DNA from: an uncultured virus (IMG/VR IMGVR_UViG_3300049259_000219)
Taxonomy: Duplodnaviria > Heunggongvirae > Uroviricota > Caudoviricetes
IMG/VR virus record: IMGVR_UViG_3300049259_000219
DNA: 64,000 nt
Direction: 5' to 3' (one strand)
Shown: positions 613 through 64,000 of the stretch, piece after piece
Numbering within the stretch: the stretch's first letter is position 1
How the letters are laid out: every line of letters begins with the position of its first letter
Translations under genes and position numbers: made by a program
The notes under the pieces: model-generated
Database searches by the model: none
Seen by the model: only the letters and a program-made list of their open reading frames with translations
What the model was told of the DNA's origin: nothing

Positions 613-638
613 CGCGTAACGCGTACCGCAATTTTCCC

Positions 639-791
639 ATGAACACTCCCGCAAAAGTCGCCGCCCTCATCGTCATTTTCATCATCGCTGGCGTCCGCGA
701 CTGGCGGTGGCATCATCGTCTTTCCGTCCCGCACCGCGAGTACACCGCCGCCCTCCGCACTTTCCGCACCGCCACCGTTTACCAGCCATGA
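639..791 (+). CDS. small putative membrane protein (50 aa)
   Basis: ATG just after motif A; MNTPAKVAALIVIFIIAGV hydrophobic stretch; too short for the ORF track. Confidence 0.5.
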   Translation: MNTPAKVAALIVIFIIAGVRDWRWHHRLSVPHREYTAALRTFRTATVYQP

Positions 792-942
792 AACGCCCGC
801 CCTATTCCCGCCGCGCCGATTATCGCCGGCTGCGCCTGGCCGGGTTTCACGCCGACTGCGCCCGCTGGCTGGTCACGCATGGCGGAAATATCAGCCTCTG
901 ATTTCCCGCAAGTTTCGCGGAACGCGTACCGTAAAATTTCCC

Positions 943-1458
943 ATGAAAACCGTCCTTGATCATCCCACGACGCCACCGCGCCTTGTGAGTTTCGCCAACA
1001 CGTGCTCCGTCGAGTATGGGCGATTCCATCACTCCAGCGGCGAGCACAATGGAACGCCCGAGCAATTCTTCCAGCCCTACCATTGGTGGGCTCACGATTA
1101 CCTGACCGCCCGAGATCCCGCCGACTGGGAAGGCGTCGCCTTTATCGACAAGCGCGAGGCTGTGGAAACGCCCGCCGGATTTCGCCTGGTCATTGCCGGG
1201 CCGATGGTCGACCCGAGTCTCGACGATGCCGAAATCTCGCGTTGCCCGACGCCCGACCCTCTTCTCGCGGAGAGCCTGGCCATGCAAGCCGACAGCACCT
1301 ACGCCACCCTGACCGCAATCCAGGTCGCAACCGCGACCCCGGAAAAAGCCGGGGCTCTCGACTGTGTATCGGTCCGCGCCTTCATGCGCCTCTGGAAAGA
1401 GGTCGGGGCGCGAGTCGGCTATATCCGGGCTGGCCAATTTGTGGAGAAAGCACCGTGA
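943..1458 (+). CDS. hypothetical protein
   Basis: 171-aa ORF starting just after motif A. Confidence 0.7.
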   Translation: MKTVLDHPTTPPRLVSFANTCSVEYGRFHHSSGEHNGTPEQFFQPYHWWAHDYLTARDPADWEGVAFIDKREAVETPAGFRLVIAGPMVDPSLDDAEISRCPTPDPLLAESLAMQADSTYATLTAIQVATATPEKAGALDCVSVRAFMRLWKEVGARVGYIRAGQFVEKAP

Positions 1459-1789
1459 GAACGACCCGCCCGGCTCGGCGCCGTCCGAAAAAGCGGAGAC
1501 TGAATGACCCCGGCGGGATTGCCGCCACCGTCTTCATCTCGACCGCCGCCCTCATCTACGCGCTCAGTGAGGCGTTGCACCATTTCTTCCCCGGAAACCT
1601 CACCGAAAAGTAACTTTTCTAACCACGGCCAAAGGAGGGGCCACGTATGCGATAACCCGAAATCCCGCCGTATCAGCCATAGCTGGTGCGGCGGCGGGAG
1701 TCGCCGGCGTTTTGCGGTACACGTACCGTAGAATCGCCGGCGACGTCCGCCGCGAAGGCGAAACCACAACCAACACAAGCACCACCACC

Positions 1790-1975
1790 ATGATCAAGTC
1801 CGCAACCATCAAGAACGGCATCCTCACCCTCGAGATTCCCGTCAACGCCACCCCGACTCCGAGCGGGTCCGGGAAAACGCTGATCGTCGCCTCGTCCGGC
1901 GGCAATCAGGTCACGACCGCGCTGGTCGACGGCAAGCCCCTCATCGTCGGGCTCAACGCCTACGTCAAGCCCTAA
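1790..1975 (+). CDS. small beta-rich hypothetical protein
   Basis: MIKSATIKNGILTLEIP...SGSGKTLIVASSGGN...GLNAYVKP; A/C-rich leader before the ATG. Confidence 0.75.
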   Translation: MIKSATIKNGILTLEIPVNATPTPSGSGKTLIVASSGGNQVTTALVDGKPLIVGLNAYVKP

Positions 1976-2040
1976 GGGGCGTCCCGCGATTACCGCGGCG
2001 GGGTATGGGGGAAGTGTGTTCCTCCCAGCCCGCCGCTGGT

Positions 2041-2101
2041 AATTGCGTGACGCGTACCGCAAAACGCCCCGTGCGTCTTTTGCGGTACGCGTCACGCAAT
2101 T
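2041..2101. repeat. perfect 24-bp inverted repeat made of two motif A copies
   Basis: AATTGCGTGACGCGTACCGCAAAA (2041-2064) and its exact reverse complement (2078-2101), 13-bp spacer. Confidence 0.95.
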
Positions 2102-2104
2102 CCA

Positions 2105-3195: not shown

Positions 3196-3384
3196 ATGAA
3201 CGACCTCGAAGCCATCTTCCGCGATATCGAATGCTCGCCCGACATGGAGACGGAGATCCGTTTGCTGCGCCGACTCGCCCGGGCCTGCCATAATGACGCG
3301 AAGACTCCGCTTGACCGGCGGCCCGGCATCGCCGCGATCACGCGCGATGCTTCCCGGTTCGTCGAGGCCAGCCTGGCCGCCTAA
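3196..3384 (+). CDS. hypothetical protein
   Basis: MNDLEAIFRDIE...; fits the tight gene packing. Confidence 0.55.
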   Translation: MNDLEAIFRDIECSPDMETEIRLLRRLARACHNDAKTPLDRRPGIAAITRDASRFVEASLAA

Positions 3385-3390
3385 ATTTCC

Positions 3391-3717
3391 ATGAGACACA
3401 ATCCGCTCGGCCAGACTACCCCGGCCAAACCGCGCCGCTTGGCGCGCGTCACCACGCCGGCGACTGCCGTCCCGAAACAAAGCGCCCTGACCCGCACGGT
3501 CCTCGCCTTGTCGGACGAGAGCTTCGCCTGCTTGCTGGCCGACGCCGACCTTGACGAGGCACGGAGAATCCGCGCCGAGTTCGCCGCCTGGTGCGCTGCC
3601 CATTCCAAGTCCCGCGATTGGCGGGTGGCATGGCGGAGCTGGCGCGCCGCGCCCGGAAAAGCGCCGCGCAAAAGAACCCCGCTCGAACTGGCCATCGCCA
3701 GAATGAAAAGCCTATGA
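3391..3717 (+). CDS. hypothetical protein resembling the C-terminal domain of the MTase-SNF2 protein
   Basis: F..LL......R.EF...C.....DWR.AW pattern shared with 18145-18366. Confidence 0.65.
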   Translation: MRHNPLGQTTPAKPRRLARVTTPATAVPKQSALTRTVLALSDESFACLLADADLDEARRIRAEFAAWCAAHSKSRDWRVAWRSWRAAPGKAPRKRTPLELAIARMKSL

Positions 3718-4076
3718 GCCGGCGAGATGATCGCCGCGCACGGTTCCGCGGGCTCCATGCCGAATACCACCTCAGCATCGCACGGAAAAACCGCTGCATC
3801 GCCAAGGTGATGGCGCAGGTTCCACCGGCGACGAAAGCCCTCCGGCTCGTCGACCGGCAGCGACCCGAAATTTTTTGGATCATCAGCCGGGAAGTTTACC
3901 CGGCCGAGATCCGTCAAGGCGAGTGGCGTGCCTCACGGTTCGACCGCTATGGGCCGAGCAGCCACTTTAACGGCCCGGACATTGCCACGATCGTGGCCGC
4001 GCTCCAAGGGGCGCATACCTCGATCGGGCTACCCTACGCCAGCCCCGGCGAACTTCGGTTCGACTCGGCCAGGTAG
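3714..4076 (+). CDS. hypothetical protein
   Basis: ATGA overlap with the upstream gene. Confidence 0.6.
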   Translation: MSRRDDRRARFRGLHAEYHLSIARKNRCIAKVMAQVPPATKALRLVDRQRPEIFWIISREVYPAEIRQGEWRASRFDRYGPSSHFNGPDIATIVAALQGAHTSIGLPYASPGELRFDSAR

Positions 4077-4349
4077 TCCGAGAACCGTCGAACGCGGGCC
4101 GCACGAAATTGCGGTACGCGTACCGCGAAAGTTTCGACGGTGCGACGGCGCGCGACGCTACCGCAAACGACGCGGCGACGCGCTGCGAACGCGACGCGTT
4201 TGCGGTACGCGTACCGCAAACGGCACGACGGCGCGCTGCGCTGCGCCGCTCGCTGACACGACGACCCGCGAACGCAACGTGATTGCGTGACGCGTACCGC
4301 AAACCTTTCGCGCACACCGCGCACACCACGAACGCACAACCCGCACACC
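4077..4349. promoter_or_regulatory. intergenic control region with three motif A copies and many CGACG words
   Basis: Perfect palindromes at 4111-4126 (16 bp) and 4197-4222 (26 bp); third copy at 4283-4303. Confidence 0.6.
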
Positions 4350-5132
4350 ATGACGATCGCCACCACCGCACCCGCACCCACCACCGCACCCGCCGCACCC
4401 GCCGCCGCCCCCAAGGGGGTCAAGCGGGTCTCGCTCACGGGCATCAAGAGCAAGGCGGCCGCCGCGCCGGCGAGCAAGTCCTACCCCGTGCTGCCCGACC
4501 CGAATCACGAGGTGACCAAGCTGGCGCACGCCATCCGCACCGATCAGGAGATGTTCGATGCCCTGGAGGGCGGCCTGAAGGTGAACAAGGCGGAACTCCG
4601 CACCCTCGCGAGCCCGTTCTACTTCCGCACGAACCGGGGCAAGGCCGAGATCCCGAGTTCCGTCCTCTGCCACATCACGCCCGAGCTCCTGGACGCGGAG
4701 GGCAAGGTCATCGGGCATGAGCCAGCCACCTCGGCCGTGCTCGTCACGTTCACGAACAAGTACGGCGCCGCCGACGAGGAAGCCGTGAAGGAAATCATCG
4801 GCGAGGAGCTGGTCGAGCGATTCTTCCGCCAGAAGTTCGAGCTCAAGATCGACGGCGACCTGCTGCCGGCGGGCCCGGCCCTCGACGAACACGGCCAGCC
4901 GGTCCTCGATGAGGGCGTGCCAGTCGCCGCCGTCAGCCAGCTCCTCGCCGAACTCGGCGCGCTCTTCGAGAAGTACGAGGCGAGCGCGGCCCTGACGCAG
5001 TCCGAGAAGATCGTCCCGGTCAGCGAGTTTCACACCGCCCGGCACACCGCCCTCACGCCTGAGCAGAACGCCGCGCTCGAGCTCGTCGTCCCCTGCCAGG
5101 CGATGATCAAGACCAAGAACGTCAAGCTGTGA
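4350..5132 (+). CDS. hypothetical protein, Ala/Pro/Thr-rich N-terminus
   Basis: Strong GC3 codon bias; A/C-rich leader; GTGA overlap with the ligase-like gene. Confidence 0.8.
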   Translation: MTIATTAPAPTTAPAAPAAAPKGVKRVSLTGIKSKAAAAPASKSYPVLPDPNHEVTKLAHAIRTDQEMFDALEGGLKVNKAELRTLASPFYFRTNRGKAEIPSSVLCHITPELLDAEGKVIGHEPATSAVLVTFTNKYGAADEEAVKEIIGEELVERFFRQKFELKIDGDLLPAGPALDEHGQPVLDEGVPVAAVSQLLAELGALFEKYEASAALTQSEKIVPVSEFHTARHTALTPEQNAALELVVPCQAMIKTKNVKL

Positions 5133-5764
5133 ACCCACGCCCCTTCTTTCCCGCCCGGCCGGTCAACGGCGGGCCGCTTGAAAAAGCCCGGCCCAAGCTG
5201 GGCGAGTGGCTGTACGAGCCAAAGTTCAACGGCTGGCGCGCCCTCATCCACGTGCCGACCCTGACCGCCTTTAACCGGCATGGGGAAATCCTCACGATCG
5301 GCGCCGAGTTTCAGGTCGCGATGACCGAGCTGCGCGCCGAACTGGCGAAGGCGCAGAACAAACTCATCCTCTCCGCCTCCCACGGCCGCGAGCGGTTGAT
5401 CGCTCAAGAGGTGGAATGGGCAGACACGGAAGCCCTGGAGCGCCGGCACAACCGAGGGCAGGGCTCACTGGTCCTGCTCGATCTGCCGATGCTTGACCTC
5501 CCGACGGTGAGCCGCGGCTACGTCATGCGGGAAATATTCTGCCCGGCGATCGACCACTGTGCCGCCCGCAACACGGTCTATTCCGTGCCGCAATACACAG
5601 ACGGACCAGCCGCCTATGCGGAGTGTAAAGCCGCCAACAAAATGCTGGGCGTCGAGTTCTACGAGGGAGTCGTCGCCAAGCGGCAGTATGCGGAATACCC
5701 GATGAACAATCGGACCGGAGACCAAGAGACGCCCAAGTGGATGAAACACCGCTGGGCCTGGTGA
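5129..5764 (+). CDS. ATP-dependent DNA/RNA ligase-like nucleotidyltransferase (adenylation domain only)
   Basis: Motif I EPKFNGWRA, motif IV EGVVAK, motif V WMKHR at the C-terminus. Confidence 0.8.
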   Translation: MNPRPFFPARPVNGGPLEKARPKLGEWLYEPKFNGWRALIHVPTLTAFNRHGEILTIGAEFQVAMTELRAELAKAQNKLILSASHGRERLIAQEVEWADTEALERRHNRGQGSLVLLDLPMLDLPTVSRGYVMREIFCPAIDHCAARNTVYSVPQYTDGPAAYAECKAANKMLGVEFYEGVVAKRQYAEYPMNNRTGDQETPKWMKHRWAW

Positions 5765-5794
5765 AATCACGTAACGCGTACCGCAAAACCTTTT

Positions 5795-6409: not shown

Positions 6410-6563
6410 TTTCCGTGAAGGCTCACCCATCCAAAGGCAAGAACCTCGCCGCGCTTCTCCGGCACTACGTGACCGGCGCCATCGAGCGCGGGGAAGCACA
6501 GCCCATCATCGAGCAGACCGCTCCCGCCCCGTCACCCGCAATTTCCGTAACGCGTACCGCAAA

Positions 6564-7260: not shown

Positions 7261-7899
7261 ATGTCGACCAATCCCAGCCAGTGGAAACCCGCCAACGTCA
7301 GCGAACTCATCGGCGAGGCGAGACGCGTCGGACGCATTCTCTCCGCCAAGATTGACCGGCTGCAGAGCGACCCGGACGCCGTGTTCAGGTGCCTCTTCTA
7401 CGGCGTCTCTGGCACCGGCAAGACTTCGCTTACCAATCTGTTGGCCAAGCAACTGGTCGGCGTCGACGAGTTCAGCCTCACCCGCAAAGCCGGGCAGGAC
7501 GTGTCGATCGACACAGTCCGCGAGTGGGAAGCCTCGCTCCGGTCACGCCCCCTCTTCGGCGACTGGCAGGTGATCCAGGTGAACGAGATCGACCTCATGC
7601 CGCCGGCCGCGCAGCACCGGCTCCTGGAGTTCCTCGACCTCCTGCCCGCCCGCTACGCCTTCCTTGGCACCAGCAATCTCGAGCTCGAACTTCTCGCCGA
7701 ACGATTCCAGACCAGGCTCCAGCCGTGGAAGATCGAGCCGCCGTCGACGGAGGAAACGATCGGCTTCATTCGCAAGCACTGGCCGCTGGTCACCGTCGCC
7801 AGCGCCAAGATGATCGCCGTCGGCAGCGCCGGCAATGTCCGCGCCGCCTGCCTCGACACCGAGAGCGAACTCGACGTGCTCCTCGCCGACGCAGCTTAA
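7261..7899 (+). CDS. AAA+ ATPase, clamp-loader/RarA-like
   Basis: Walker A GVSGTGKT, Walker B-like VNEID, FQTR arginine finger, GNVRAA sensor 2. Confidence 0.8.
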   Translation: MSTNPSQWKPANVSELIGEARRVGRILSAKIDRLQSDPDAVFRCLFYGVSGTGKTSLTNLLAKQLVGVDEFSLTRKAGQDVSIDTVREWEASLRSRPLFGDWQVIQVNEIDLMPPAAQHRLLEFLDLLPARYAFLGTSNLELELLAERFQTRLQPWKIEPPSTEETIGFIRKHWPLVTVASAKMIAVGSAGNVRAACLDTESELDVLLADAA

Positions 7900-7930
7900 C
7901 AATTCACGGAACGCGTACCGCAAAACCACT

Positions 7931-8754: not shown

Positions 8755-8780
8755 CCAATTCGCGTAACGCGTACCGCAAA

Positions 8781-8984
8781 ATGTCCGACACCTGCAGCCA
8801 GTTCAACCCGCTTCACTCCGCAATCAAAGGCCACAGCGACCGCTGCCGTCAGTGCGGTGGCACCAGCGAGGAGCACGAGGAGGCGGAGCGCCGCGACTTC
8901 GAGCCGCCTGATCGCGATCGCGAGTACTCCGACGGACCGATGAACGTCTGCGGGTTGTTCGAAGGCCGCGCTGAATACCGCTGA
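8781..8984 (+). CDS. small Cys/His-containing hypothetical protein
   Basis: Motif A runs into its ATG; C..F...CRQCG....EH. Confidence 0.6.
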   Translation: MSDTCSQFNPLHSAIKGHSDRCRQCGGTSEEHEEAERRDFEPPDRDREYSDGPMNVCGLFEGRAEYR

Positions 8985-9617: not shown

Positions 9618-9980
9618 ATGCGGATCATCCCCGAGAACGAACACATGGAAACGCCTCCCGACACCACCGGGCCTCCAGTGTTCCGCACCGCACCGGCCTA
9701 CCGGATGCCGGACCGCGCCAAGTACGAAGCCTCCACCGGGATGGCTCCGCGCCAGCTCACGACTGATGTCAAGTTCGTCAGCCGCGCCCTCGGCCGCGTG
9801 AAGGCAGACGCCGAGACGGTGAACTTCGCCGGCTCCGTCAATGCCCGCGCCACGCTCGACGCGATCTGCGAAAGCGTCCACCAGGAGTCCGGAATGGATT
9901 CCACCGACACCGTTTTCTTCGACCCTGAGACGCAATCCTTTTGGGTTTTCCCCGGAAGTCGCGACACGCAAATTGCGTAA
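9618..9980 (+). CDS. hypothetical protein
   Basis: Stop codon lies in motif A. Confidence 0.55.
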   Translation: MRIIPENEHMETPPDTTGPPVFRTAPAYRMPDRAKYEASTGMAPRQLTTDVKFVSRALGRVKADAETVNFAGSVNARATLDAICESVHQESGMDSTDTVFFDPETQSFWVFPGSRDTQIA

Positions 9981-10032
9981 CGCGTACCGTAAACCGCACG
10001 ACACCACCACACGACACCACGACACCACCGCT

Positions 10033-10449
10033 ATGATGTTCAAAGCCCTCGCGCCGCTCCTGGCCGGCAACTCCACCCTCATGCTGTCCCTCGCCTCTGC
10101 CGGCGGCGACAAGCTGCGGTTCACGATCACCCCCATCAAAGGCAAAGACGAAGACGACGACCCCACCGCCTCCGTCCTCCATCGCCCGATCGTGTTGACC
10201 GGCACGGTCGACGAACTCGACGTTGACCTGCCCGGGCATCTCGCCGCCTACACCGACCGGCGGACCAGCCTGCGGGAAGTGTTCGAGGACTTGGACAAGC
10301 AGTTCGAGGAAGCGAAGAAGGAGAGCGAGGAGCGCATCGCCGCGGAGAAGAAGCGCACCGCCAGGGGAATCCCGACGATCGAGAAACCCGAGAAGCCGAC
10401 CCCGCCCCCTGCGCCACCGAAACCCGCCGCTCCAGCCTCCATCCTCTAA
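10033..10449 (+). CDS. PRTRC system protein E
   Basis: MFKALAPLL...PIVLTGTVDELD...SL pattern with charged/Pro-rich tail; operon context. Confidence 0.85.
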   Translation: MMFKALAPLLAGNSTLMLSLASAGGDKLRFTITPIKGKDEDDDPTASVLHRPIVLTGTVDELDVDLPGHLAAYTDRRTSLREVFEDLDKQFEEAKKESEERIAAEKKRTARGIPTIEKPEKPTPPPAPPKPAAPASIL

Positions 10450-10452
10450 GCC

Positions 10453-10671
10453 ATGGCCCTCATCCTTGAAGCAATCGAGCGCACCTTCCGCTACAACGGC
10501 ATGGATCTCCCCGATCCGAATCCCTCCCTCTCAGTGAGCGAGGTTCAGGGGATCCACTCCGGCACCTACCCGGAACTGGCGACCGCCAAGCCCACCGTCG
10601 AGCAAAAGAACACCGCCAATGGCACGCGCCAAGTCATCACCTACGCCGTCGCGGCAGGAACGAAGGGCTGA
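10453..10671 (+). CDS. PRTRC system protein C (prokaryotic ubiquitin-like)
   Basis: RTFRYNGMDLPDPNPSLS...YPELATA...GTKG C-terminus. Confidence 0.92.
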   Translation: MALILEAIERTFRYNGMDLPDPNPSLSVSEVQGIHSGTYPELATAKPTVEQKNTANGTRQVITYAVAAGTKG

Positions 10672-10776
10672 GCTCGAGGTTGCGGCCACGCTGGAACTCA
10701 TCGCCAAGGCGAACAAGGCTCCCCCGTGTCCGCATCCCGAGCTCAACCCACGCCACCTCACCGTTGAGCAACGCCA

Positions 10777-12018
10777 ATGCCATCAACTTCTCTCGCGCTT
10801 CGCAGCCTCCGCCCTCGCCGGCAAGGGTCGCCCGCTCTTGCCACCGCCCCTCAGCCTCGCGCCACTGGTCTAAGCCTCCCCCGCTTCGGTGCCAGCGTCC
10901 CCAAGAAAGCTACTTTCCGGACCGGCACCACCGAGTTGGCGCAGATCGCCGAGGGGATGGCCCACACCGGCATCCTGCGTCCGAGCCATTTCAAAGGCAG
11001 CGGACCGGACTCCATCAAAGGCGCCGTCGACTCCGCCCTCAGCGAGTTGACGAAGGCGCATGAGCGGCGATGGAAACTCCACAAGGATCTCACCATCGGC
11101 TACACGACCTCCCTCGCCGGCATCAACACGCCGCCTGCCTTCGAGTCCGAGGCGAGGGCGAATGACACCGCGGCGATCGTCTTTGAGAGCGGCCAGCGAC
11201 AAGTCTTCATCATCGGCGAACGCCTGGACGGCATCGAGAAGCGGCAGCGCGGAGCCGGAGTGAAGCTACTTCGGCTCATCGAGCTGGCCCTGGATGCCGG
11301 ATTCGGCGGCATCACGCCGCTGACGGGCATGTCGATGATGCAGTGGCACTTTTGGCAAGGCTCTTGCGACGAGAAGGAACGACTGGAGGATCTACGCCTC
11401 AACTGGGAGGAGGAACGGGAGGAAGGCGCCCCGCCCATGACCGACGCGGAAATCCTCAAGGAATGCGACATCCCCAGCCGCGCAGATTTCGAGTCATGGT
11501 TTCCCAAATGGACCTACGACATAGGATGGCCCAATCTCAATCAGGTAGTCATCCCCTTCTTTAAGTCCCCGATTCGGGGCGAGCCCGCGATCCGCGCCGC
11601 GGCCAATGCCCTCAGCCGACACCTCTCCAGCTTCTGGCGTCAACGGATGTACGCCACCGGGCGGGATCGCCTCAACGATCTCCGCCAACTGGAGGCGACC
11701 ATCGAGTTTGCTGCGCCGATCGTCCTCCGCTGGCACGAAAACGACATGCTCCCCGCCATCTTCGACGAGGTCATGCAGGACTTCATGAACAGCGGGGACA
11801 CCAACGACGATATGTGCGCCGCCGTTTGCTTTGACCCTGCCTCGCCAGCCAGCTGCCGGGACGCCGGCGAGCGGGTACGCCTCATCCTCGAAACCACCGG
11901 CCTCATCGACCAACTCCTCTCCCTCTTGGTGACGAAAGAACCACTGTCCCGAACCCTCGGCTACGAGGTGACCACCGAAATTCCCGCCGCCATCAACACC
12001 GGCGGTCTCCGCGTATGA
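10777..12018 (+). CDS. PRTRC system protein F
   Basis: Position between C and B; 413 aa with LSLPRF, WQGSCDE and FPKW segments. Confidence 0.7.
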   Translation: MPSTSLALRSLRPRRQGSPALATAPQPRATGLSLPRFGASVPKKATFRTGTTELAQIAEGMAHTGILRPSHFKGSGPDSIKGAVDSALSELTKAHERRWKLHKDLTIGYTTSLAGINTPPAFESEARANDTAAIVFESGQRQVFIIGERLDGIEKRQRGAGVKLLRLIELALDAGFGGITPLTGMSMMQWHFWQGSCDEKERLEDLRLNWEEEREEGAPPMTDAEILKECDIPSRADFESWFPKWTYDIGWPNLNQVVIPFFKSPIRGEPAIRAAANALSRHLSSFWRQRMYATGRDRLNDLRQLEATIEFAAPIVLRWHENDMLPAIFDEVMQDFMNSGDTNDDMCAAVCFDPASPASCRDAGERVRLILETTGLIDQLLSLLVTKEPLSRTLGYEVTTEIPAAINTGGLRV

Positions 12019-12764
12019 ATGTCTTCAGTTCCATCGGCTCCGAACACGAGGTCACACTCGAGCAGGCGATCCTCATCTATCGGTCCCGCCCCAGTGGATC
12101 GGACTCACGCCGTTGGGATTTCAGCACCCAAGGCGGCGTCATCGCCACGGTTCACACCGTGACGGACAACGTCATCAGCGCCGGGGTCGTGGCCACGGAG
12201 GAATCGGTTCGGCATCTCACCGCCGACCTGACCGGACGCACCGCAGGGATGACCCTCATCCCGTCCCATGTACTGGCCATCTCGTCCGACTACATGGCAT
12301 GGCATTCGCCGGCATCCCGCCGCCGCATGTGGTTTCAGCCGGCCGACAGCGTCAAAGCCGAGGCTGCCGACTTGGTCAAATTCAGTGGCGAGCACTTTCC
12401 TCAGCCGCCCCTCCTCTTCATCGCCGGAACCCATGGCCTACGTGTCTTTGCGCTGAAGTCCGGCAACCGACCGACGGAGCGCACCACCGTTTACCGCGCG
12501 CCCTACTGGAACGTCGGCAACAGCGGCAACCTCTGCGTCGGCTCCACCCGGCTCCCCAAGGATCTCCTCTCGTCCAACATCCCGGGCTTCGAAGCAGCCT
12601 TCTTTCAATCACGCTTCACCCACCCAACCATTCACGGCTGCCAGCTCGCCAAGACCCGGCACTCTCTTCTCTGGACGAAGCTCGCCAACAAGCGCGCCTT
12701 CCCCATCGACCAACTCGTGTCCACCAAACGGACGCTTGGTCAACTTCTCGCCCAACCCAAATGA
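12015..12764 (+). CDS. PRTRC system protein B (prokaryotic E2-like)
   Basis: PPLLF...LRVFAL...RP...YRAPYWNV...GNLCVG...FFQSRFTHP. Confidence 0.9.
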   Translation: MNVFSSIGSEHEVTLEQAILIYRSRPSGSDSRRWDFSTQGGVIATVHTVTDNVISAGVVATEESVRHLTADLTGRTAGMTLIPSHVLAISSDYMAWHSPASRRRMWFQPADSVKAEAADLVKFSGEHFPQPPLLFIAGTHGLRVFALKSGNRPTERTTVYRAPYWNVGNSGNLCVGSTRLPKDLLSSNIPGFEAAFFQSRFTHPTIHGCQLAKTRHSLLWTKLANKRAFPIDQLVSTKRTLGQLLAQPK

Positions 12765-13627
12765 CCAAGCTCCGCCTACCGCCGCACTTCCTGGAAGAGC
12801 CCGTCGACATTGATATCGTCGGCGCCGGCGGCAACGGCTCGCAGATGCTCTACGGGCTGGCGCGCCTGCACTTCGCCCTCTTAGCACTGGGTCACCCGCA
12901 CGGCCTCCGCGTCACGCTCTACGACCCGGACATTGTCAGCCCGGCGAACGTCGGCCGCCAACTCTTCTCGCCCTCCGACGTGGGCCACGCCAAAGCGGCC
13001 ATCCTCATTCACCGGGTGAATATGTTTTACGGTCTCACTTGGTCCGCCGCGGTCAGCAACTACCGAAACTGCGCCGGACACGGGTCCGACCTCGTGATCG
13101 GCTGCGTCGATTCGGCCGCCAGTCGGCGGGAGATCCTCACGGTTACGAGAAGAGCGTGGAATTGCTGGTGGCTCGACCTCGGCAACAGCGCCCACACCGG
13201 CCAGGTGGTCCTCGGCCGGGAGCAACGCATCATCGACAAGCACCGGGCACGCAAGGCCGCCGACATGGAACTTGAGTGCAGCCCTCCCACCATCATGGAG
13301 TTGTTCCCCTCACTGGCCGACCCGGCCGTGAAGGAAGACAACGCCCCCAGCTGCTCGCTCGCCGAAGCCCTGGAGAAGCAGGACCTCTTCATCAACCAGA
13401 GCGTGGCTACCTTCGCCCTCCATCTTCTCTGGACGTGGTTCCGCCAAGGTCACCTCGAGCACCACGGGTATTTCATCAACCTCAAACTCGGACGCGTCGC
13501 CCCGATGCCGATTGACCCGATCGCATGGAAGCGGCTGGCCGACGCGAATAAATCACGCAAGCGCGTAAAGAAGGCGACCACCCCGAAGGCAACCCCCAAA
13601 AAATCGCGGAACGCGTACCGTAAATGA
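12761..13627 (+). CDS. PRTRC system ThiF family protein (E1-like)
   Basis: GAGGNGS, DPDIVSPANVGRQ, IGCVDS, WLDLGN, PSCSLAEALEKQDLFINQ. Confidence 0.93.
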   Translation: MTKLRLPPHFLEEPVDIDIVGAGGNGSQMLYGLARLHFALLALGHPHGLRVTLYDPDIVSPANVGRQLFSPSDVGHAKAAILIHRVNMFYGLTWSAAVSNYRNCAGHGSDLVIGCVDSAASRREILTVTRRAWNCWWLDLGNSAHTGQVVLGREQRIIDKHRARKAADMELECSPPTIMELFPSLADPAVKEDNAPSCSLAEALEKQDLFINQSVATFALHLLWTWFRQGHLEHHGYFINLKLGRVAPMPIDPIAWKRLADANKSRKRVKKATTPKATPKKSRNAYRK

Positions 13628-14208: not shown

Positions 14209-14220
14209 CGCAAAATTATC

Positions 14221-18668: not shown

Positions 18669-18776
18669 CGAGAAAGCGCAACAGGCCAGGCGCGAAGCCA
18701 GGCTCGCCCGCCTCGCCCAGAAACTAAAGGTGCCCACCGGGCACGGCCTCAACCATCCCGCCCCATTCCACCGGCT

Positions 18777-19073: not shown

Positions 19074-19125
19074 CCGCCGCCCTAAATTTCGCGGGACGCG
19101 TACCGCAAAAACCAACCACACCAAC

Positions 19126-42050: not shown

Positions 42051-42066
42051 GGTGAAAGTTACTTTT

Positions 42067-48072: not shown

Positions 48073-48096
48073 TTTACGGTACGCGTTACGCGAATT

Positions 48097-50024: not shown

Positions 50025-50028
50025 AAAG

Positions 50029-56464: not shown

Positions 56465-56708
56465 CGAGAAGCAGACTCACCACACTTCGAGCCAGAGGTC
56501 AACCCCCGGCTATTTTGCGGTACGCGTTCCGCAATTCCGAGCAGGAAAGAAAAGAGCCACCGGCGTTAGAGCGCCGATGGCCGATTGACTCGCGGCCCCG
56601 GGATACATTCCTGACGCCATAGTAGCCGTAACAGACCCATTAATTATAGCCGAATGGCTCTCCGGTCAATCATGAAGACGTTTTTCCGCTTTTCTGGAAA
56701 ACCGTAAA

Positions 56709-56939
56709 TCAGAGGGGTGAAACAGATGAGGGGGAAACAGATGAGGAACGAGATTCGTCGCGTCTTGCCTGCCCAGCGCCGTCTTGCAGCTGGCACTCAT
56801 GCACCGCCGCCTCCAATGCCCCGGACATGCGCAAGGCATCGGACGCGGACATGATCATCTTTGTCGGCATCCCGCCGAGCTGGCCCGAGATCTCGATCTC
56901 ATTACCCACCACAACCGCACCCGTGAATCTGAAGCTCAT
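56709..56939 (-). CDS. hypothetical protein
   Basis: MSFRFTG..., coupled to the terminase stop. Confidence 0.5.
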   Translation of the reverse strand: MSFRFTGAVVVGNEIEISGQLGGMPTKMIMSASDALRMSGALEAAVHECQLQDGAGQARRDESRSSSVSPSSVSPL

Positions 56940-58651
56940 ATAATGGAAAATTGCGCGTCCTCGTCCTGCTCTGATACCACGTCCAACTCGCTGTGCAACC
57001 AGAGCTGCGCCCCGACCCACGCGTAGAGGCTGGCGTATGGACCGTCCTTCTTGCCCCGCGAGCCGAACAGCTTGAACCCCCGCTTGGAAACCAGCGGCCG
57101 GCCATCCTCCCCGGTCAGTTGCACGACATTCTCGAGCTGCTGCAGGATGAGATCGAGATAGCCCTGCGCGTCGACAATCTCCTGCGCCCATCCACGGATC
57201 TCCGCCGGCGCGCGATCCTGCAAGCGCAGCGGCCAGTGGAACATGCCCGCTTCCCACCCCTCGCGGTAGTTCTGATGGCAGGCCTCAATGAACCCGTCGT
57301 CACTCACGAGCTGGCGCGGCTCCACGAAGGGCAGACGGTCGAAGGAACCACCCCGCTTGAAGTAGTGAACGATCGGCTGCTTATCAACCGTGATCGGCTC
57401 ATCCGTGGTACACAGCGGGGTGACGTTGAAGCGGTGCCCATCGAGTTCCTGCGTCGCCCGCTTCATTTCCTTGTAGACCCACAAGCCACCACCGCCAGGA
57501 TCGAGCACGATGCGCGAGAAGGCAAAGAAGCGGTGCAGCCGATGAATGAAGGCCGACGTCTCGGCTGCCGACTTGTCCCGCAGAAAGGAGGCGAAGGTGA
57601 ACGCGATATTGAAGTCACGCCCAGGGAGCTGGAAGTTGCAGGGCAGGTTCATCCCCGCCGCCGCCAGCTCCACGATCCGCAGATTCACAAAGGCCGAGCT
57701 ATCGGACTTGATCGACTGACCGGGCGCAATGTCGACGCCAAGGATGTTCACCTCGCCGTCATACAGCCGGGCCATGGCGGGCTCGAGGTAGCGGCGCGTG
57801 GCCAGCGTCAGGATTCCCTCCGGGTAATAAGTGGATCCATCGCGGCTCCACAAGCCGAGCCATTGCCGCCGGAATTGCTCAGGCTGCAAGACGGCCCGTT
57901 GCGTGCGAATCGTCGAATCAGGCCGCAACTTTTTCGCCATCGCGGGCGAGAAATCGCGAAAGCAAAAAGAATAGACCGCGTGCGTGTTGGAGCCGTCCCG
58001 AATGAGGCGGCGATAGCTCTTGTACCGCTCGAAGCCACGATGCGACGGCTTCTCCGCGTGCCCCTTGAAGTGGATATGGTTGCACCAGATCGGATGATTC
58101 TGATTGAACGAAGGCCGGGTCACACGATCGACGAGCTGCTTGTCGATGCCCTCGCCCATGTCCATCGAGCGGAGCCAGTCGTCGATGACCAGCGTGTTGA
58201 ACCGGCGACTGGCCTGCGTATTGGAGTCCTGCATGAAGGACGGCGCCGGCATGATGACCCGCGAACCGTGTTTGTAGTGCCACGAGTAGGCACCAGGCTC
58301 CTTCTTCTCCCCGATGACGTTGCGATAGACCTGACACTGGAGCCGGAAGATCTCCGATTGCTGGATGGTCTTTTCGTAGTACGGCCAGAACTCATCCTTG
58401 CCGGTCTGGAAGTTCGGAAAGTAGACGGCCGCCACGTGATCCGGCAGCAGCATCGCGCGGAGATTGACGAGAAGGAAGATGCGGAGGGTCTTGCCGGTCG
58501 AGACGCCGGACGAGTCGATCGTCTCCGGGAACCACCAGTCAATCCGCAGCGCGGCCGCCTGAAACACGTCGAGCTTCCAACCCATCAGGACCTCGGCGGC
58601 CATGACCGGGTCGCAAAGTAACTTTTTGAGAACAGAGGAGGAGAACTCCAT
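56936..58651 (-). CDS. terL: terminase large subunit
   Basis: Walker A GVSTGKT, Walker B LVIDD, nuclease ILGVDIA, VLDPGGGG, KKD..YA. Confidence 0.85.
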   Translation of the reverse strand: MEFSSSVLKKLLCDPVMAAEVLMGWKLDVFQAAALRIDWWFPETIDSSGVSTGKTLRIFLLVNLRAMLLPDHVAAVYFPNFQTGKDEFWPYYEKTIQQSEIFRLQCQVYRNVIGEKKEPGAYSWHYKHGSRVIMPAPSFMQDSNTQASRRFNTLVIDDWLRSMDMGEGIDKQLVDRVTRPSFNQNHPIWCNHIHFKGHAEKPSHRGFERYKSYRRLIRDGSNTHAVYSFCFRDFSPAMAKKLRPDSTIRTQRAVLQPEQFRRQWLGLWSRDGSTYYPEGILTLATRRYLEPAMARLYDGEVNILGVDIAPGQSIKSDSSAFVNLRIVELAAAGMNLPCNFQLPGRDFNIAFTFASFLRDKSAAETSAFIHRLHRFFAFSRIVLDPGGGGLWVYKEMKRATQELDGHRFNVTPLCTTDEPITVDKQPIVHYFKRGGSFDRLPFVEPRQLVSDDGFIEACHQNYREGWEAGMFHWPLRLQDRAPAEIRGWAQEIVDAQGYLDLILQQLENVVQLTGEDGRPLVSKRGFKLFGSRGKKDGPYASLYAWVGAQLWLHSELDVVSEQDEDAQFSII

Positions 58652-59702: not shown

Positions 59703-59957
59703 TCATAATCCGTAGCAGACAAAGCAGGTCAGTTTAGTCACACATCCGCAGGAGGGGCACTTGACCTCGCGGCATCCACACCATTCGGGAAGGCCGAGCC
59801 AGTCGACAGTTCCACCACACTCGGGACAGAGAGCAGTAAGAGGAGGCCGCGGGGCCTGCGACATACCGACGAGCAGCCCACGAGCAAAGCCCCGCGCGAG
59901 AGCGGCGTTCTCCGCAGCTTTGCAAATCTCGATAATCTCAGCGGAGCCATCGGCCAT
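59703..59957 (-). CDS. small zinc-ribbon protein
   Basis: CPECGG...CPSCG; motif A just upstream. Confidence 0.55.
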   Translation of the reverse strand: MADGSAEIIEICKAAENAALARGFARGLLVGMSQAPRPPLTALCPECGGTVDWLGLPEWCGCREVKCPSCGCVTKLTCFVCYGL

Positions 59958-59960
59958 GTT

Positions 59961-60575
59961 TTACGGTACGCGTTCCGCGAATTTCGCGACCCACCCGGTT
60001 TGATGGCAGGCAGCGCACCCGCTGGCATTACACTGCTGACAGACGGTGTTCGTGATGAGGGACGCGTCACACATGACTTCTTCGCCGTCGTGATAATTGC
60101 GAGCAGCCGGGGTCGGATCTTTAATGAACACCGGCGACCGGCGCATGACCTTGGCAACCGCACGCTGAATCTTTGCCAGTCCTTTCTCCGGCGTGGCCGA
60201 GCTGACTTCGAGCGCAGGATCTTCTTCCGGCGTCCAAGGAGGCGGAGCCGCCTGCTCTTCCTCGTACTCGCGTGGCACACCGAGAATCTCAGGCAGCGGC
60301 GCCGCGCCCTCAGGCAGGATCCGGACGAGGACATGATGCTTCTTCATCCGCACCTTTCCCTGCGGCTGGCCCATCCTATCCAGCCAATCGGGCCGGTAAT
60401 GCGGACAGGTCTCCCAGTAGGTTTTCAGGGCCATCATCGCGCTGACCGCCGGCACGTCGCCGAGGTCCCATTCGGTGGCGACGTGTTGCACCTTCTTGAT
60501 GGCGAGCGTCGAGATGATGCGGCGCGTCTTCGCGGAGAGCCGGTACATCCTCATTCCTTCAGGTAGATCGCTCAT
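59961..60575 (-). CDS. hypothetical protein with C-terminal Cys cluster
   Basis: CQQCNASGCAACHQTG; stop lies in motif A. Confidence 0.6.
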   Translation of the reverse strand: MSDLPEGMRMYRLSAKTRRIISTLAIKKVQHVATEWDLGDVPAVSAMMALKTYWETCPHYRPDWLDRMGQPQGKVRMKKHHVLVRILPEGAAPLPEILGVPREYEEEQAAPPPWTPEEDPALEVSSATPEKGLAKIQRAVAKVMRRSPVFIKDPTPAARNYHDGEEVMCDASLITNTVCQQCNASGCAACHQTGWVAKFAERVP

Positions 60576-61408: not shown

Positions 61409-61434
61409 AGGTTAAAGGTTACGACGGTTACGAC

Positions 61435-62112
61435 TCAGTCCTCCTCGTTCGTCGCCATCGACTCCAGAGCGGCCTCGACCGCCATCAGCTCCTCCGTGGC
61501 CTGATGCCCGGTGAGACGCAGCAGCTCCGCGTTGTTGCGCTTAATCAGGTCGACCAGCGTCCGCAAGGGATTCTCCGGCACCGACACGAGGCGGCGGGAT
61601 TGAGGACGGCCGAATGTCTCGACCTCCCGCGCGGAGACATCGTCACCAAGCGGCCGCGGACGGAAGCTAAAGCCACCATCGAAGCTGACGATCGCGGTGA
61701 ACTCGGAATACGTGACAGCACGCCACTCTTCGCTACCGACCTCGCGCACCTGATACTCGCCCTCGTGAGTCCGGTACTCGTGCCGGAGAGCTTCCGCCCG
61801 CGCCTTCGCCTCTTCTTCCGTTGCTTCGCGGAAATCCTCCTGCGGCTCCCATCCGCTTGCGCCGAGATGGGGCTCCCATCCGCCCGAGTTCAAACTCCGG
61901 ACGACGGTCCGCACCCGCGGACAGCCAATCCCGGCGTTCTCCCATTCAAGCTCAGTACGCTGGCTTGCCAGTGGCTGACCCTCGGAAGGCTGGCCCTCGG
62001 CAGGACCCGTCTCCCCGGAAGGCGGTTTGCTTGTCTCCTCGGAAGGAGGGTGGCTTGTCCCCGTGGAAGGGGCTTGAGCGGACGGCGCCGCGGATCGTTG
62101 GTTTCTTGACAT
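61435..62112 (-). CDS. hypothetical protein
   Basis: 225-aa ORF. Confidence 0.6.
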   Translation of the reverse strand: MSRNQRSAAPSAQAPSTGTSHPPSEETSKPPSGETGPAEGQPSEGQPLASQRTELEWENAGIGCPRVRTVVRSLNSGGWEPHLGASGWEPQEDFREATEEEAKARAEALRHEYRTHEGEYQVREVGSEEWRAVTYSEFTAIVSFDGGFSFRPRPLGDDVSAREVETFGRPQSRRLVSVPENPLRTLVDLIKRNNAELLRLTGHQATEELMAVEAALESMATNEED

Positions 62113-62144
62113 AAGAGGAAGGCCGACTTGGCAAAAAGAGAAAG

Positions 62145-62630
62145 TTAGATTTTCGGAGCCTCCGCATCGTCCGACTCAGGGGTGCCAGTCGGCAGACCAG
62201 CGTCAGGCTTTGGGCAACCACCGGGATGAACATGGCAGTTGCCATCACCATCAGTATCGAGACTACACCCCGCCGCCGGCGCATCCTCAGCCGCCGCGAT
62301 CCGCCCCGTGGCCTTGCGGCGCGCGACCTTCGTCTCGACCGCATCGAGCTGAAGCGTGCCATCCAGGAGCAGGCGGTGCGTGACCAAAGGAAGCTCGCCC
62401 TTGTTCCGCTTCATCGCGGAGGCGAGTTGCTTATCATCACCATCCACATCGGTCGTGACGAAGCAGCCGAAGTTTTTGGAGGAATCGCGCCTGACGTAGA
62501 CCTCGATGATCTGAGCCGTATTCGGCAGGCGAATCAGGAGTGAACCGAAGCGTTCGAGGCGGACCTCGAGGTTGCCTTCGGGCGTGGCGGTGAAGGTGGC
62601 AAGTTCGGCAGGCGTAGGGACGAGGCTCAT
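62145..62630 (-). CDS. hypothetical protein
   Basis: 161-aa ORF with A-rich leader. Confidence 0.65.
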   Translation of the reverse strand: MSLVPTPAELATFTATPEGNLEVRLERFGSLLIRLPNTAQIIEVYVRRDSSKNFGCFVTTDVDGDDKQLASAMKRNKGELPLVTHRLLLDGTLQLDAVETKVARRKATGRIAAAEDAPAAGCSLDTDGDGNCHVHPGGCPKPDAGLPTGTPESDDAEAPKI

Positions 62631-62738
62631 TTCAGTGGTTTTTTTTGTGGTGTCTAACGAAAGGGATCACGTCTTGGGGACAGCAACGCCGATCGCAGAA
62701 GTCAGCGCCATCGTGGTTGAGCACTTGCCGCGACCGGG

Positions 62739-63122
62739 TCATACCGCCCCCTCCGCAACGCCGTGCTCCGATTTCGAGAAGCCACACATTGCACACTGGG
62801 GAAACCCGTCAGCCTCGACGCCCGCACCAATCCCGGCGGGGTCATATTCATCACAGGGCGTATCACCTTCGATTGGAGGCACGCGCTCGCCGTAGGTGGT
62901 TAGGCTTCCGGTAATCGGCTCTCCAGCCGCGTTAGCAGGCGCAGCCGCGACCGGAATACTGGCCTCATGAAGCCAGTCGCTCAACCGAGTGAACCCCAAG
63001 AGGTGCGCAACCTCACTCAATGGATGCGCGACGAGGTTATGAATGGACCACTTGAAATGCTCACGCGACTTCGCGCGAATCGATCGGCACAGACCCTTCA
63101 GTTGGCAGTTGGAGCAGTTCAT
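62739..63122 (-). CDS. hypothetical Cys/His-rich protein
   Basis: Motif A runs into ATG 63122; WSIHNLVAHPLSEV. Confidence 0.65.
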   Translation of the reverse strand: MNCSNCQLKGLCRSIRAKSREHFKWSIHNLVAHPLSEVAHLLGFTRLSDWLHEASIPVAAAPANAAGEPITGSLTTYGERVPPIEGDTPCDEYDPAGIGAGVEADGFPQCAMCGFSKSEHGVAEGAV

Positions 63123-63135
63123 TTTGCGGTACGCG

Positions 63136-63933
63136 TTACGGAAGCAGATGCGCGAACCGCTCATGCAGCTCCTTCAACTCCTTCAACTCAGACAGGGCGG
63201 CGTCTCGCTCGGCCTGCATTTCCGTGAAGACTTTGCCGCACTCAGAGACGCCCTTGTTGTAGCCGCGCTCCTCCTCGTGACGGAGGGCTTGTGCGTGCCT
63301 GGATTGCTCCCCTCGCAGGAAGTTTTCGACGGCGGTACTTTCGTGGAGGTAGGGAACGAGTTGCTGCTCCAGCTCCCGCACTCGGCGCAGCAGGCCAAGC
63401 TCAGAATCCTCCACCTTCATAGCGCATCCGGGCTCGTGTCTACCCGAAGAGCCGAAGTGCAGGCGGGCGCACTCCTTGTGCGTGAAGACTTCGCCGCAAT
63501 GGAAACAGCGCCATTGAGTAGCCGCCGCCTCCGCGCGAGCGACGAGCCACTTCACGACATCCTCAAGGCCGTCCGCGCCTTCGTATTCGCCGGCGACTGA
63601 GGATTTCGAAAGCACCGCCTCGGCAGCCACCCAGTCCTTGACGAGGTCAAGAAGATCGCTCGCGTCCTCGCCACCCGATTGATAATTCGCCATCAGCGCC
63701 AGGCACTGCTTCACGGTCTCAGCCGGCCCCTCGGCTTCGGGATCGCGATCAGTCTCGGCTTCGGGATCGCGATCACGCTCTCCTCGAAGTTCGGCGCGGA
63801 CTCTCTCAACTGCTTGGAACCATTTCGAGTGGTCAAGGCATCGGTGATCCATATCTTGCGCCAGACGGTCACACTCCGGGCCGACGACCGAAGTCAGCAG
63901 CCCGCGTAACATTGATTCAGAGAGAGGTTTCAT
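63136..63933 (-). CDS. hypothetical protein with C2H2-like motif and coiled coil
   Basis: WRCFHCGEVF.....ARLHFG; motif A just upstream. Confidence 0.7.
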   Translation of the reverse strand: MKPLSESMLRGLLTSVVGPECDRLAQDMDHRCLDHSKWFQAVERVRAELRGERDRDPEAETDRDPEAEGPAETVKQCLALMANYQSGGEDASDLLDLVKDWVAAEAVLSKSSVAGEYEGADGLEDVVKWLVARAEAAATQWRCFHCGEVFTHKECARLHFGSSGRHEPGCAMKVEDSELGLLRRVRELEQQLVPYLHESTAVENFLRGEQSRHAQALRHEEERGYNKGVSECGKVFTEMQAERDAALSELKELKELHERFAHLLP

Positions 63934-64000
63934 ATTGCGGTACGCGTTCCGTAAAATCAGTAGTCCGCCAGCTTGGCCGAACGAACGGGTGGTTTTGGCG

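Follow-up and report, generated by a model that had tools for sequence, protein, structure and literature searches.

A palindromic word at the gene junctions of an uncultured tailed phage, asymmetric at start codons, as candidate operator sites of a dimeric DNA-binding protein

We describe a 22-bp near-palindrome, here called motif A, that occurs 30 times in a 64-kb window of DNA from an uncultured Caudoviricetes virus (IMG/VR record IMGVR_UViG_3300049259_000219). The window is the whole stretch analysed, 64,000 nucleotides of a 77,117-base contig, and about 13 kb of the contig lie outside it. Nearly all copies of motif A are placed at gene junctions, many of them run directly into a start codon, and the copies next to starts differ from the others in sequence and in predicted RNA folding. 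Our preferred reading, which we hold tentatively, is that these are operator or stoperator-like sites of a candidate phage-encoded dimeric DNA-binding protein, and that the copies at starts are shaped so as to keep the ribosome landing zone unstructured.

Results

Sequence and copy number of motif A

Exact matches to the motif A core (CGNNACGCGTNNCG) number 29 in the window, against 0.35 expected from 100 dinucleotide shuffles, the largest of which held 3. The ideal 22-mer with up to three mismatches is found 21 times (0.00 expected). A one-mismatch scan added a thirtieth copy at 1715, with the core ACACGT and intact flanks, so that the 30 copies claimed by an earlier sequence-only reading of this DNA stand as 29 exact cores and one one-mismatch copy. 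Five other one-mismatch cores (14674, 15345, 40823, 50369, and 61772) were excluded because the flanks are absent. Alignment of the sites in a common orientation gives AATTyGCGKwACGCGTACCGCAAAA, with ten invariant columns and similarity that stops past approximately 26 nt. Dyad symmetry extends across 22-26 bp, with an A/T run at both ends. C5 G6, A9-T14, and C17 G18 are invariant, which bears out the near-invariant CG-NN-ACGCGT-NN-CG described earlier. Conservation is contiguous and highest over the gene-proximal 14 nt.

A matrix built from the 30 sites scores them at 31.4-45.4 bits, whereas nothing elsewhere in the window exceeds 8 bits on either strand. Isolated half-sites are nearly absent, the only one being at 4159, within a cluster of three full sites. 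The total information of the motif is 38.8 bits, compared with the 12.1 bits needed to specify 30 sites.

Position and orientation of the sites

The window is organised in two gene arms, on the + strand up to approximately 30.4 kb and on the - strand beyond, for which we curated a map of 82 genes and starts. On this map, 28 of the 30 motif A 22-mers are not wholly contained in a gene, compared with 14.6% of all 22-nt windows (P = 1e-21). At many junctions nothing but motif A separates the two genes: it begins 1-4 nt past the upstream stop, and the ATG follows at a distance of 0-7 nt. An ATG opening a reading frame of at least 40 codons lies within -1 to +7 nt of 17 of the 30 sites, against an either-direction background of 11.1% (P = 1.7e-9); it is found at the A-tract end in 16 cases and at the other end in one (2083). 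The positional bias suspected earlier thus holds against background, for junctions as well as for starts.

Site and ATG are separated by 0 nt in eight cases (ATG at 6564, 8781, 25645, 29680, 32444, 48072, 63122, and 63933) and overlap by 1 nt at 13624, while seven more sites lie at 2-7 nt and two at 15-16 nt. All eight copies that had been listed as running straight into a start codon were recovered, 13624 by virtue of its overlap, and 63933 is added to them. Orientation, as judged from the better half-site and the A-run, matches the gene strand in 22 of the 26 scorable sites (P = 5e-4), with four discordant sites and four ties. It flips between the two arms, in agreement with the earlier remark that the A-tract end mostly faces the direction of transcription.

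At five junctions (13603-13624, 14193-14214, 22041-22062, 59960-59981, and 63123-63144), the motif overlaps the end of the upstream gene and encodes its last residues or its stop. The TAA in the motif variant GTAACG is the stop codon of two genes. The proteins encoded at the overlapping junctions accept a constant tail so that the site can be retained.

Two classes of site

The positions written as NN in the earlier description do vary without compensation, as stated there, but they are not free: they split an asymmetric class that abuts starts from a symmetric class found off starts. Nearly all start-abutting sites carry TA or GA at positions 7-8, where a true palindrome needs GT. An A is present at position 8 in 15 of the 16 sites that abut a start at the A-tract end and in 2 of the 14 others (Fisher P = 1.7e-5). 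The perfect inner GT occurs in none of these 16 and in 8 of the 14 others (P = 5e-4). Copies away from starts are mostly true palindromes. The mean RNA folding energy of the 26-nt site is -2.8 kcal/mol for the abutting sites and -6.9 kcal/mol for the rest (P = 4e-4), and perfect copies reach -10 to -16 kcal/mol. That the copies in the start zone are kept from folding would imply that they are transcribed within the mRNA.

When the site is treated as a 9-pair hairpin, 70.7% of the cells pair, compared with 73.8% in shuffled alignments, and 499 of 500 shuffles pair at least as well. Only one pair is changed on both sides, and there is no compensatory variation. With no compensatory changes, a DNA duplex bound by a dimer is a better fit than an RNA stem under selection; together with the dyad symmetry, this favours the dimeric binder suggested earlier, as far as sequence can indicate.

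A Shine-Dalgarno-like 4-mer (GGAG, GAGG, or AGGA at -18 to -4) precedes only 2 of the 82 starts, compared with 13.8% of background windows. The two exceptions, the tape-measure gene (GTG 37749) and the gene at 40981, are not preceded by motif A, and none of the 18 starts preceded by motif A has such a 4-mer; the remaining 64 of the 82 starts lack motif A. Regions upstream of starts are A/C-rich and G-poor. A 7-mer test on 13 sequences (the window and 12 of the 72 related loci described below) found no other word enriched upstream of starts. In one account, bacteria termed 'SD-scarce' include Bacteroidota and some Verrucomicrobia (PMC10783764). Another source states that Shine-Dalgarno pairing permits initiation in structured 5' regions and that Bacteroidetes are generally without the sequence (PMC3155529). 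On that point, a hairpin right before the start would be costly in a host poor in Shine-Dalgarno sites.

The nearest Atlas clusters of the phage SSB are mostly Verrucomicrobiota, and a ThiF homologue with 52% identity comes from a metagenome-assembled genome named by its source as Verrucomicrobiota, while another homologue is from Armatimonadota. The SSB clusters and that single ThiF homologue hint at a Verrucomicrobiota host. No terminase relatives were found in 401 Acidobacteriota genomes.

Sites along the two gene arms

On the + arm, asymmetric copies with TA at positions 7-8, all on the + strand, are located at 611-632 (6 nt before ATG 639), 2948-2969 (2 nt before ATG 2972), 5766-5787 (beginning 1 nt past the upstream stop and 7 nt before ATG 5795), 6542-6563 (0 nt before ATG 6564 of the RadC-like gene), 8759-8780 (0 nt before ATG 8781), and 29658-29679 (0 nt before ATG 29680 of the final gene of the arm). 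Those with GA, also on the + strand, are at 914-935 (7 nt before ATG 943), 7903-7924 (6 nt before ATG 7931), 13603-13624, which lies in the last codons of the PRTRC ThiF gene and whose final A is the A of ATG 13624, and 14193-14214, whose proximal half is GTAACG, with the TAA as the upstream stop, 6 nt before ATG 14221 of the SNF2 helicase gene. Three other + strand copies vary more in distance: 9972-9993 (TA) lies 39 nt before the double start ATG-ATG 10033/10036 of PRTRC protein E, 19088-19109 (GG) lies 16 nt before ATG 19126 of the methyltransferase gene, and 25623-25644 (TT) lies 0 nt before ATG 25645. A near-symmetric copy without assigned strand (inner GT, 22041-22062) takes in the stop of the PAPS-reductase-like gene and lies 279 nt ahead of ATG 22341 of a ParB-like gene. 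The untranslated 279-nt stretch that follows it (22063-22340) contains several short hairpins and one copy of a second motif, motif B (see below), and may be a structured leader, a small RNA, or a centromere-like region.

The early part of the same arm holds the less regular arrangements. The one-mismatch copy (core ACACGT, inner GT) is at 1711-1732 on the - strand, with ATG 1790 lying 57 nt off its non-A-tract end. An inverted pair is formed by 2042-2063 (+) and 2079-2100 (-), both with TG, whose A-tract ends face each other 15 nt apart; ATG 2105 is 4 nt off the non-A-tract end of the right-hand copy. Three sites share the 273-nt gap 4077-4349: a symmetric copy with inner GT at 4108-4129, the sole perfect 22-bp palindrome at 4199-4220 (RNA fold -15.6 kcal/mol), both without assigned strand, and a + strand copy with TG at 4282-4303, 46 nt before ATG 4350. 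This gap is full of G+C-rich short repeats (ACGACG and GCGACGCG types) and could be the main control region or an origin.

Ten sites lie in the virion-gene arm (32-64 kb). Asymmetric - strand copies with TA are at 32445-32466, which fills the 22-nt gap after the tape-measure gene, 0 nt before ATG 32444 of a 693-aa protein; at 48073-48094, which begins 2 nt past the upstream stop, 0 nt before ATG 48072; and at 63123-63144, which overlaps the upstream stop, 0 nt before ATG 63122. Those with GA are at 59960-59981, which shares sequence with the final codons of the upstream gene and lies 2 nt ahead of ATG 59957, and at 63934-63955, 0 nt before ATG 63933. A further - strand copy with GA (56514-56535) lies 49 nt before ATG 56464 of a 475-aa gene next to the terminase gene, presumed to be the portal by position only. 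Inner GT is found in four sites: the symmetric 37798-37819, without assigned strand, which on the - strand directly follows motif B, with the start GTG 37749 of the tape-measure gene 49 nt further on; the symmetric 39810-39831 (RNA fold -13.1 kcal/mol), likewise without assigned strand, which stands between convergent genes right after the stop at 39809 and beside a G+C hairpin; 43756-43777 (-), 15 nt before ATG 43740 of a 355-aa protein; and 49995-50016 (-), which has motif B ahead of it and falls within a lipoprotein-like gene (ATG 50024), at codons 3-10. That small gene (49764-50024, - strand), in the lysis region, begins MMKTRYAFRKIF...LVALGGC, a lipoprotein signal with lipobox, and is possibly a spanin.

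Two sites are preceded by terminator-like structures. A hairpin with a T-rich run just upstream of 611-632, seen by eye and not called by the scanner, leaves approximately 45 nt, nearly all of it motif, ahead of the ATG. An 11-pair hairpin with a T run ends approximately 20 nt upstream of 56514-56535.

Candidate binding proteins

A ParB-like protein of 438 aa (22341-23657, + strand) is the only recognised sequence-specific DNA-binding candidate in the window besides a small serine recombinase of 248 aa (24216-24962, + strand), which is the second possibility. Genes for small zinc-ribbon proteins come after motif A sites at 2105-2407, 8781-8984, 59703-59957, and 62739-63122. The ParB-like protein has a GERR box (residues 72-75), which aligns with that of Spo0J, and a ParB helix-turn-helix (HTH), and gives weak scores on Noc and parB models (45.6 against a curated cut-off of 58.45, NCBIfam). 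The motif copy that had been noticed upstream of its gene is the one at 22041-22062, and it is the only one of the 30 sites within 300 nt of the gene. No member of the ParA family was found in the window, where the sole AAA protein looks like a clamp loader.

A 282-aa gene (38961-39809, + strand) lies inside the - strand virion arm, opposite to all its neighbours, and the block that holds it (37820-39809) is bracketed by two symmetric motif A sites. Because of this bracketing, the lone gene was tried as a repressor candidate and rejected: its structural model (pLDDT 81.9, built from 9 sequences) best matches phage neck proteins (E approximately 2e-4, TM approximately 0.3), and the product is predicted to be structural, with a neck or tail-terminator-type fold. 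A reverse-strand reading frame at 3381-3917, another would-be repressor, was rejected in favour of two forward genes.

Gene content of the window

The G+C content of the window is 63%. Virion genes on the - arm include the large terminase (56936-58651; PHROG match and Atlas clusters), a tape-measure protein of 1760 aa, and a tail-fibre protein of 1344 aa; a lysozyme-like protein and SSB are encoded on the same arm. The + arm carries plasmid-like cargo. It encodes RadC and, near it, a short protein weakly similar to the ligase domain of the non-homologous end-joining ligase D (5129-5764) and a 212-aa clamp-loader-like (delta-prime-like) ATPase (7261-7899). A complete PRTRC cassette (E, ubiquitin-like C, F, B/E2, and ThiF) occupies 10036-14208 of this tailed phage. 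It is followed at 14221-24962 by an SNF2 helicase (1381 aa), a methyltransferase, DUF6884, the PAPS-reductase-like protein, the ParB-like protein, and the small serine recombinase. Cargo of this kind, from PRTRC to recombinase, is typical of plasmids and integrative elements.

The phage is tailed and highly divergent, and it may be a phage-plasmid. No close annotated phage was matched among 50,697 phage records by megablast with the SNF2 gene or tblastn with the terminase, and the tape-measure, SNF2, and ParB proteins have only distant matches (at most 35% identity) in annotated phages and plasmids. Scans of the window for tRNA genes and Rfam families gave no matches. No RNA sequencing runs containing the phage sequence are listed; the sole run is a soil metagenome, its probable source.

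Relatives and a second motif

The terminase has 121 homologues in a large protein collection, of which the nearest are 77% and 75% identical. An alignment of 37 homologues led to 72 related loci in metagenomes, which total 540,454 bases and whose terminases are at most 54% identical; the motif A core is present in none of them. A search with the single terminase confirmed nothing in viral or genome contig collections, and the alignment search found nothing in viral contigs. An 18-mer of motif A gave one match in viral contigs and 10 single matches in 185,579 species genomes, with no second core beside the match in any locus. A degenerate 18-mer gave 13 single matches in viral contigs. The 18-mer matches are all at chance level, and a 14-mer scan of the collections gave single chance matches among the matches listed. 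The closest ThiF homologues (at most 64% identity) have unrelated C-terminal ends, which are uninformative for reading the motif from protein tails.

Among the 30 related loci of at least 6 kb, only one, L176, has a clear multi-copy palindrome; several apparent two-copy palindromes in related loci were counting artefacts. L176 is a distant relative (terminase 34% identical), and its junction palindrome is a different one, TGCAGACGTCTGCA, with eight sites in 21.8 kb (near 1222, 1558, 5808, 8435, 12240, 12371, 16320, and 19417). It is embedded in short tandem repeat arrays, with units such as ATAGCCA and GAGAGTTGA. Another locus, L158, has one similar palindrome copy near 1940 together with long tandem arrays.

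Motif B (AAAGTAACTTT) is an 11-bp near-palindrome with 25 strand-matches at up to one mismatch, compared with 0.15 expected. In the window, it lies at 1607-1617, 2401-2411, 14026-14036, 18304-18314, 22203-22213, and 29240-29250 in the first half and at 32757-32767, 37819-37829, 42055-42065, 46630-46640, 50025-50035, and 58615-58625 in the second. Several copies directly follow a stop codon or precede a start by 1-10 nt, some are intragenic, and two directly precede motif A (37.8 kb and 50.0 kb). Motif B is common to the eight closest loci (L133-L138, L141, and L142), with 19 matches against approximately 4 expected. On these comparisons, motif A appears private to this phage, and motif B appears to be a property of the lineage or its host.

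Discussion

We propose that one phage-encoded, sequence-specific protein binds motif A as a dimer; its gene may lie in the approximately 13 kb of contig outside the window. The phage would have placed a copy of the motif in most of the minimal intergenic gaps on both arms, and the bound protein would control transcription genome-wide, with the site serving as an operator near a promoter and as a stoperator-like roadblock within operons and between convergent genes. If the host reads mRNA without Shine-Dalgarno pairing, an unstructured zone would be needed before the start codon. The start-abutting copies would then also be under selection at the RNA level, with the distal half-site spoiled (GT to TA or GA) so that no hairpin forms over the start. 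The spoiled distal half and the A-run flank on the proximal side would together give the element its polarity. Protein binding, action on transcription, and hairpin avoidance as the cause of polarity are what we infer from the pattern of sites. Several sites are sensible for a bound protein and not for a promoter, namely, the triple in the 273-nt gap (4108-4303), the facing pair at 2042-2100, the convergent site at 39810-39831, and the intragenic site at 49995-50016. The privacy of motif A and the different word in L176 are also what a fast-diverging regulator would be expected to leave if it diverged with its operators. Judging by the positions of the sites, a single regulator may act over early, PRTRC, DNA-modification, and virion genes.

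Several observations weigh against this proposal. Hairpin avoidance alone would spare either half of the site, yet the proximal half is kept at every start-abutting copy. Since it is always the distal half that is spoiled, some directional function is left unexplained. Terminator-like hairpins stand before at least two sites (611-632 and 56514-56535) and leave almost no room for a separate promoter, which favours a promoter within the motif. Sigma-70-like promoters number 9 in positions 1-60000 against 9.4 expected from shuffles, although the host promoter type may differ. Apart from the ParB-like protein and the serine recombinase, no HTH or regulator family was recognised in 80 open reading frames (ORFs) scanned with Pfam or 73 scanned with PHROGs, and the same two scans found no regulator among the small ORFs. 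No integrase or repressor was seen in the window, and a temperate or plasmid life style is only suggested by the ParB-like protein and the small recombinase. The information in motif A is far above what a regulator needs and could reflect recent copying.

The main alternative, though a rather unlikely one, is that motif A is a phage-specific promoter, read by a phage RNA polymerase, a sigma-like factor, or an activator, with transcription starting in the A-run, leaders of 0-10 nt or none, and the asymmetric class as the unidirectional form. On that same doubtful footing, phage-private transcription would start nearly every unit at the AUG or within approximately 7 nt of it in a probable Verrucomicrobiota-like host and yield leaderless or near-leaderless mRNAs, while the symmetric copies would be bidirectional stops or regulatory sites. 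A promoter would account for the ATG found -1 to +7 nt after the A-tract end in 16 of the 30 sites (always ATG), for the 22 of 26 scorable sites that point with transcription, for the contiguous conservation that is strongest on the gene-proximal 14 nt, and for the hairpin and T run directly upstream of two sites, where there is no space for another promoter. The 38.8 bits of information fall in the range of T7-type promoters, sigma-70-like promoters are not in excess, the motif resembles the promoters of phage polymerases in its privacy to one phage, and such a device would go well with a host that initiates without Shine-Dalgarno pairing. On the other hand, the scans recognised neither an RNA polymerase nor a sigma family among the ORFs of the window (approximately 13 kb of the contig lie outside), and one would not expect a promoter to have a dyad of 14-26 bp. 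Transcripts from the 2042/2079 pair would run towards each other, 39810 lies between convergent genes, and 49995 is intragenic. Manual comparison of the conserved positions with sigma-70, MerR-type, and N4 hairpin-promoter geometries gave no fit, and 11 of the 30 sites break the would-be 4-bp stem. Starts located after the site would leave nothing selecting against hairpins in the start copies, although unidirectionality could explain the asymmetry instead.

The ParB-like protein offers an improbable alternative, in which the copies are loading sites comparable to parS, KorB operators, or Noc sites, and a CTP clamp spreads from all 30 dispersed copies for plasmid-prophage partition, silencing, or both. 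Its GERR box and HTH, its weak Noc and parB scores, the copy 279 nt upstream of its gene, the palindrome with A/T-rich ends and a G+C centre, as in parS and Noc sites, and the phage-plasmid suggested by the cargo (PRTRC, SSB, RadC, and the small recombinase) speak for it. Yet with 1 of 30 sites near the gene there is no centromere-like clustering, ParA was not found in the window, the site is 22-26 bp and not approximately 16, and the scores are under the curated cut-offs (45.6 against 58.45). Loading sites would not predict abutment to start codons or orientation, and the neighbour of the gene is the PAPS-reductase-like gene, a pairing that presumably points to a role in DNA modification rather than partition. 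Quite improbable, in our view, is a reading in which the sites are joints where genes are exchanged or where a site-specific recombinase acts, such as the serine enzyme at 24216-24962, or in which they are a short repeat that copies itself, the sameness of the copies then being due to copying. Information greatly above need, the lack of weak copies, and sites set exactly between stop and start, which make each gene a bounded cassette, agree with this; so do the resemblance of a 22-26 bp dyad with a central CG to serine-recombinase crossover sites and the two symmetric sites that bracket the block 37820-39809 with its opposite-strand structural gene. However, a genome with thirty active crossover sites facing both ways would undergo scrambling or deletion, the end of similarity past approximately 26 bp leaves no larger mobile unit, and the start-linked pattern of two classes indicates selection on individual copies. 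We give very little credence to an RNA-level element, that is, a translation-initiation signal or a processing site recognised, immediately ahead of the start, by a protein or nuclease of phage or host. Motif A does abut the ATG in a phage without Shine-Dalgarno sites, and its A-run lies next to the ATG; a translation role was proposed by the authors who described the Cluster K SAS, a motif in the same place (PMC3203893). Against it stand a DNA-style dyad without covariation, the 13 of 30 sites that are not beside a start and are the most perfect palindromes, and the 64 of 82 starts without the motif. Least probable of all would be borrowed sites of a host regulator that plug the phage genes into a host regulon, an idea that gains from the failure to find a phage binder in the scanned ORFs of the window. 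The relatives carry motif B and not motif A, whereas a host site would be expected in them if their hosts are similar, as this argument assumes; the commonest 18-mer has 10 single matches in 185,579 species genomes and no multi-copy locus; and conservation is far tighter than we would expect of a host regulon.

Should a binder of the operator-like sites be found, a poorly studied host group would yield a compact, orthogonal regulator that acts at 30 graded sites. Should motif A instead be a promoter, this genome would be run on leaderless mRNAs.

Dispersed sites for one protein are familiar from other replicons. The P1 C1 operators, the KorB operators of IncP plasmids, and the Noc sites each serve one protein at a dozen to several dozen sites per replicon, and KorB and Noc are members of the ParB family. 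Motif A resembles them in its dispersal across the replicon and in the presence of a ParB-family protein, and differs from them in size and in start abutment: those sites are 13-17 bp, and we know of none that abuts start codons. From parS/ParB systems, the present one differs in that, although a ParB-like protein with GERR box and HTH is encoded, the sites are not clustered at a par locus and no ParA was found in the window. T7-type promoters are approximately 20 bp long, highly conserved, phage-private, and oriented ahead of genes, and their information far exceeds need; they are not palindromic. Motif A is palindromic, no polymerase gene was seen in the window, and the facing pair and the convergent and intragenic sites do not point to genes.

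Actinophages of Clusters A, K, and O carry private words in many copies at their gene junctions, and a binder and mechanism are known only for the stoperators of Cluster A. The sequence-only reading had named stoperators and the Cluster K start-associated sequences (SAS) as analogues; position and orientation do fit these, whereas membership fails, as both are 13-bp asymmetric words, with a Shine-Dalgarno core in the SAS. The Cluster A stoperators are bound by a monomeric repressor (L5 gp71, TipsytheTRex repressor), which has an HTH and a stoperator domain and blocks elongation, at more than 20 oriented sites located in promoters and short intergenic spaces (PMC9283540). Motif A is like them in its many phage-specific copies in short intergenic spaces and in an orientation that follows transcription (here 30 sites, 22 of 26 concordant), and unlike them in being a 22-26 bp dyad of which many copies run into the ATG. 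No homologue of the Cluster A stoperator repressor was detected in the scanned ORFs of the window. The Cluster K SAS has an AGGAG Shine-Dalgarno core and lies in one orientation 3-7 nt before starts, mostly ATG, while the extended SAS (ESAS) are imperfect inverted repeats without RNA-type compensation, for which the authors infer protein-binding DNA (PMC3203893). As with the SAS, a repeated word stands a few nucleotides upstream of ATG starts (17 of 30 sites at -1 to +7 nt, all ATG); in contrast, the SAS contains the AGGAG core and is limited to the non-structural half of the genome, whereas here there is no Shine-Dalgarno element, the palindrome itself abuts the ATG, and sites occur on both arms, ten of them among the virion genes. 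The Cluster O repeats are 17-bp dyads (TGTTCGGNNNCCGAACA) with more than 30 near-invariant copies genome-wide, many of them between genes or at 5' ends, in whose orientation the authors saw no meaning (PMC4351075). They are matched here by 30 near-invariant palindromic copies in 64 kb with ten invariant columns, and differ in that motif A is oriented with transcription, has an asymmetric start-abutting subclass, and is unrelated in sequence. Motif A shares the logic of stoperators, SAS, and Cluster O dyads and fits the definition of none of them. What it adds to these systems is a motif in a phage without Shine-Dalgarno sites, so that the word occupies the ribosome landing zone itself, and two classes of site that form a natural experiment separating a DNA-level role from an RNA-level constraint.

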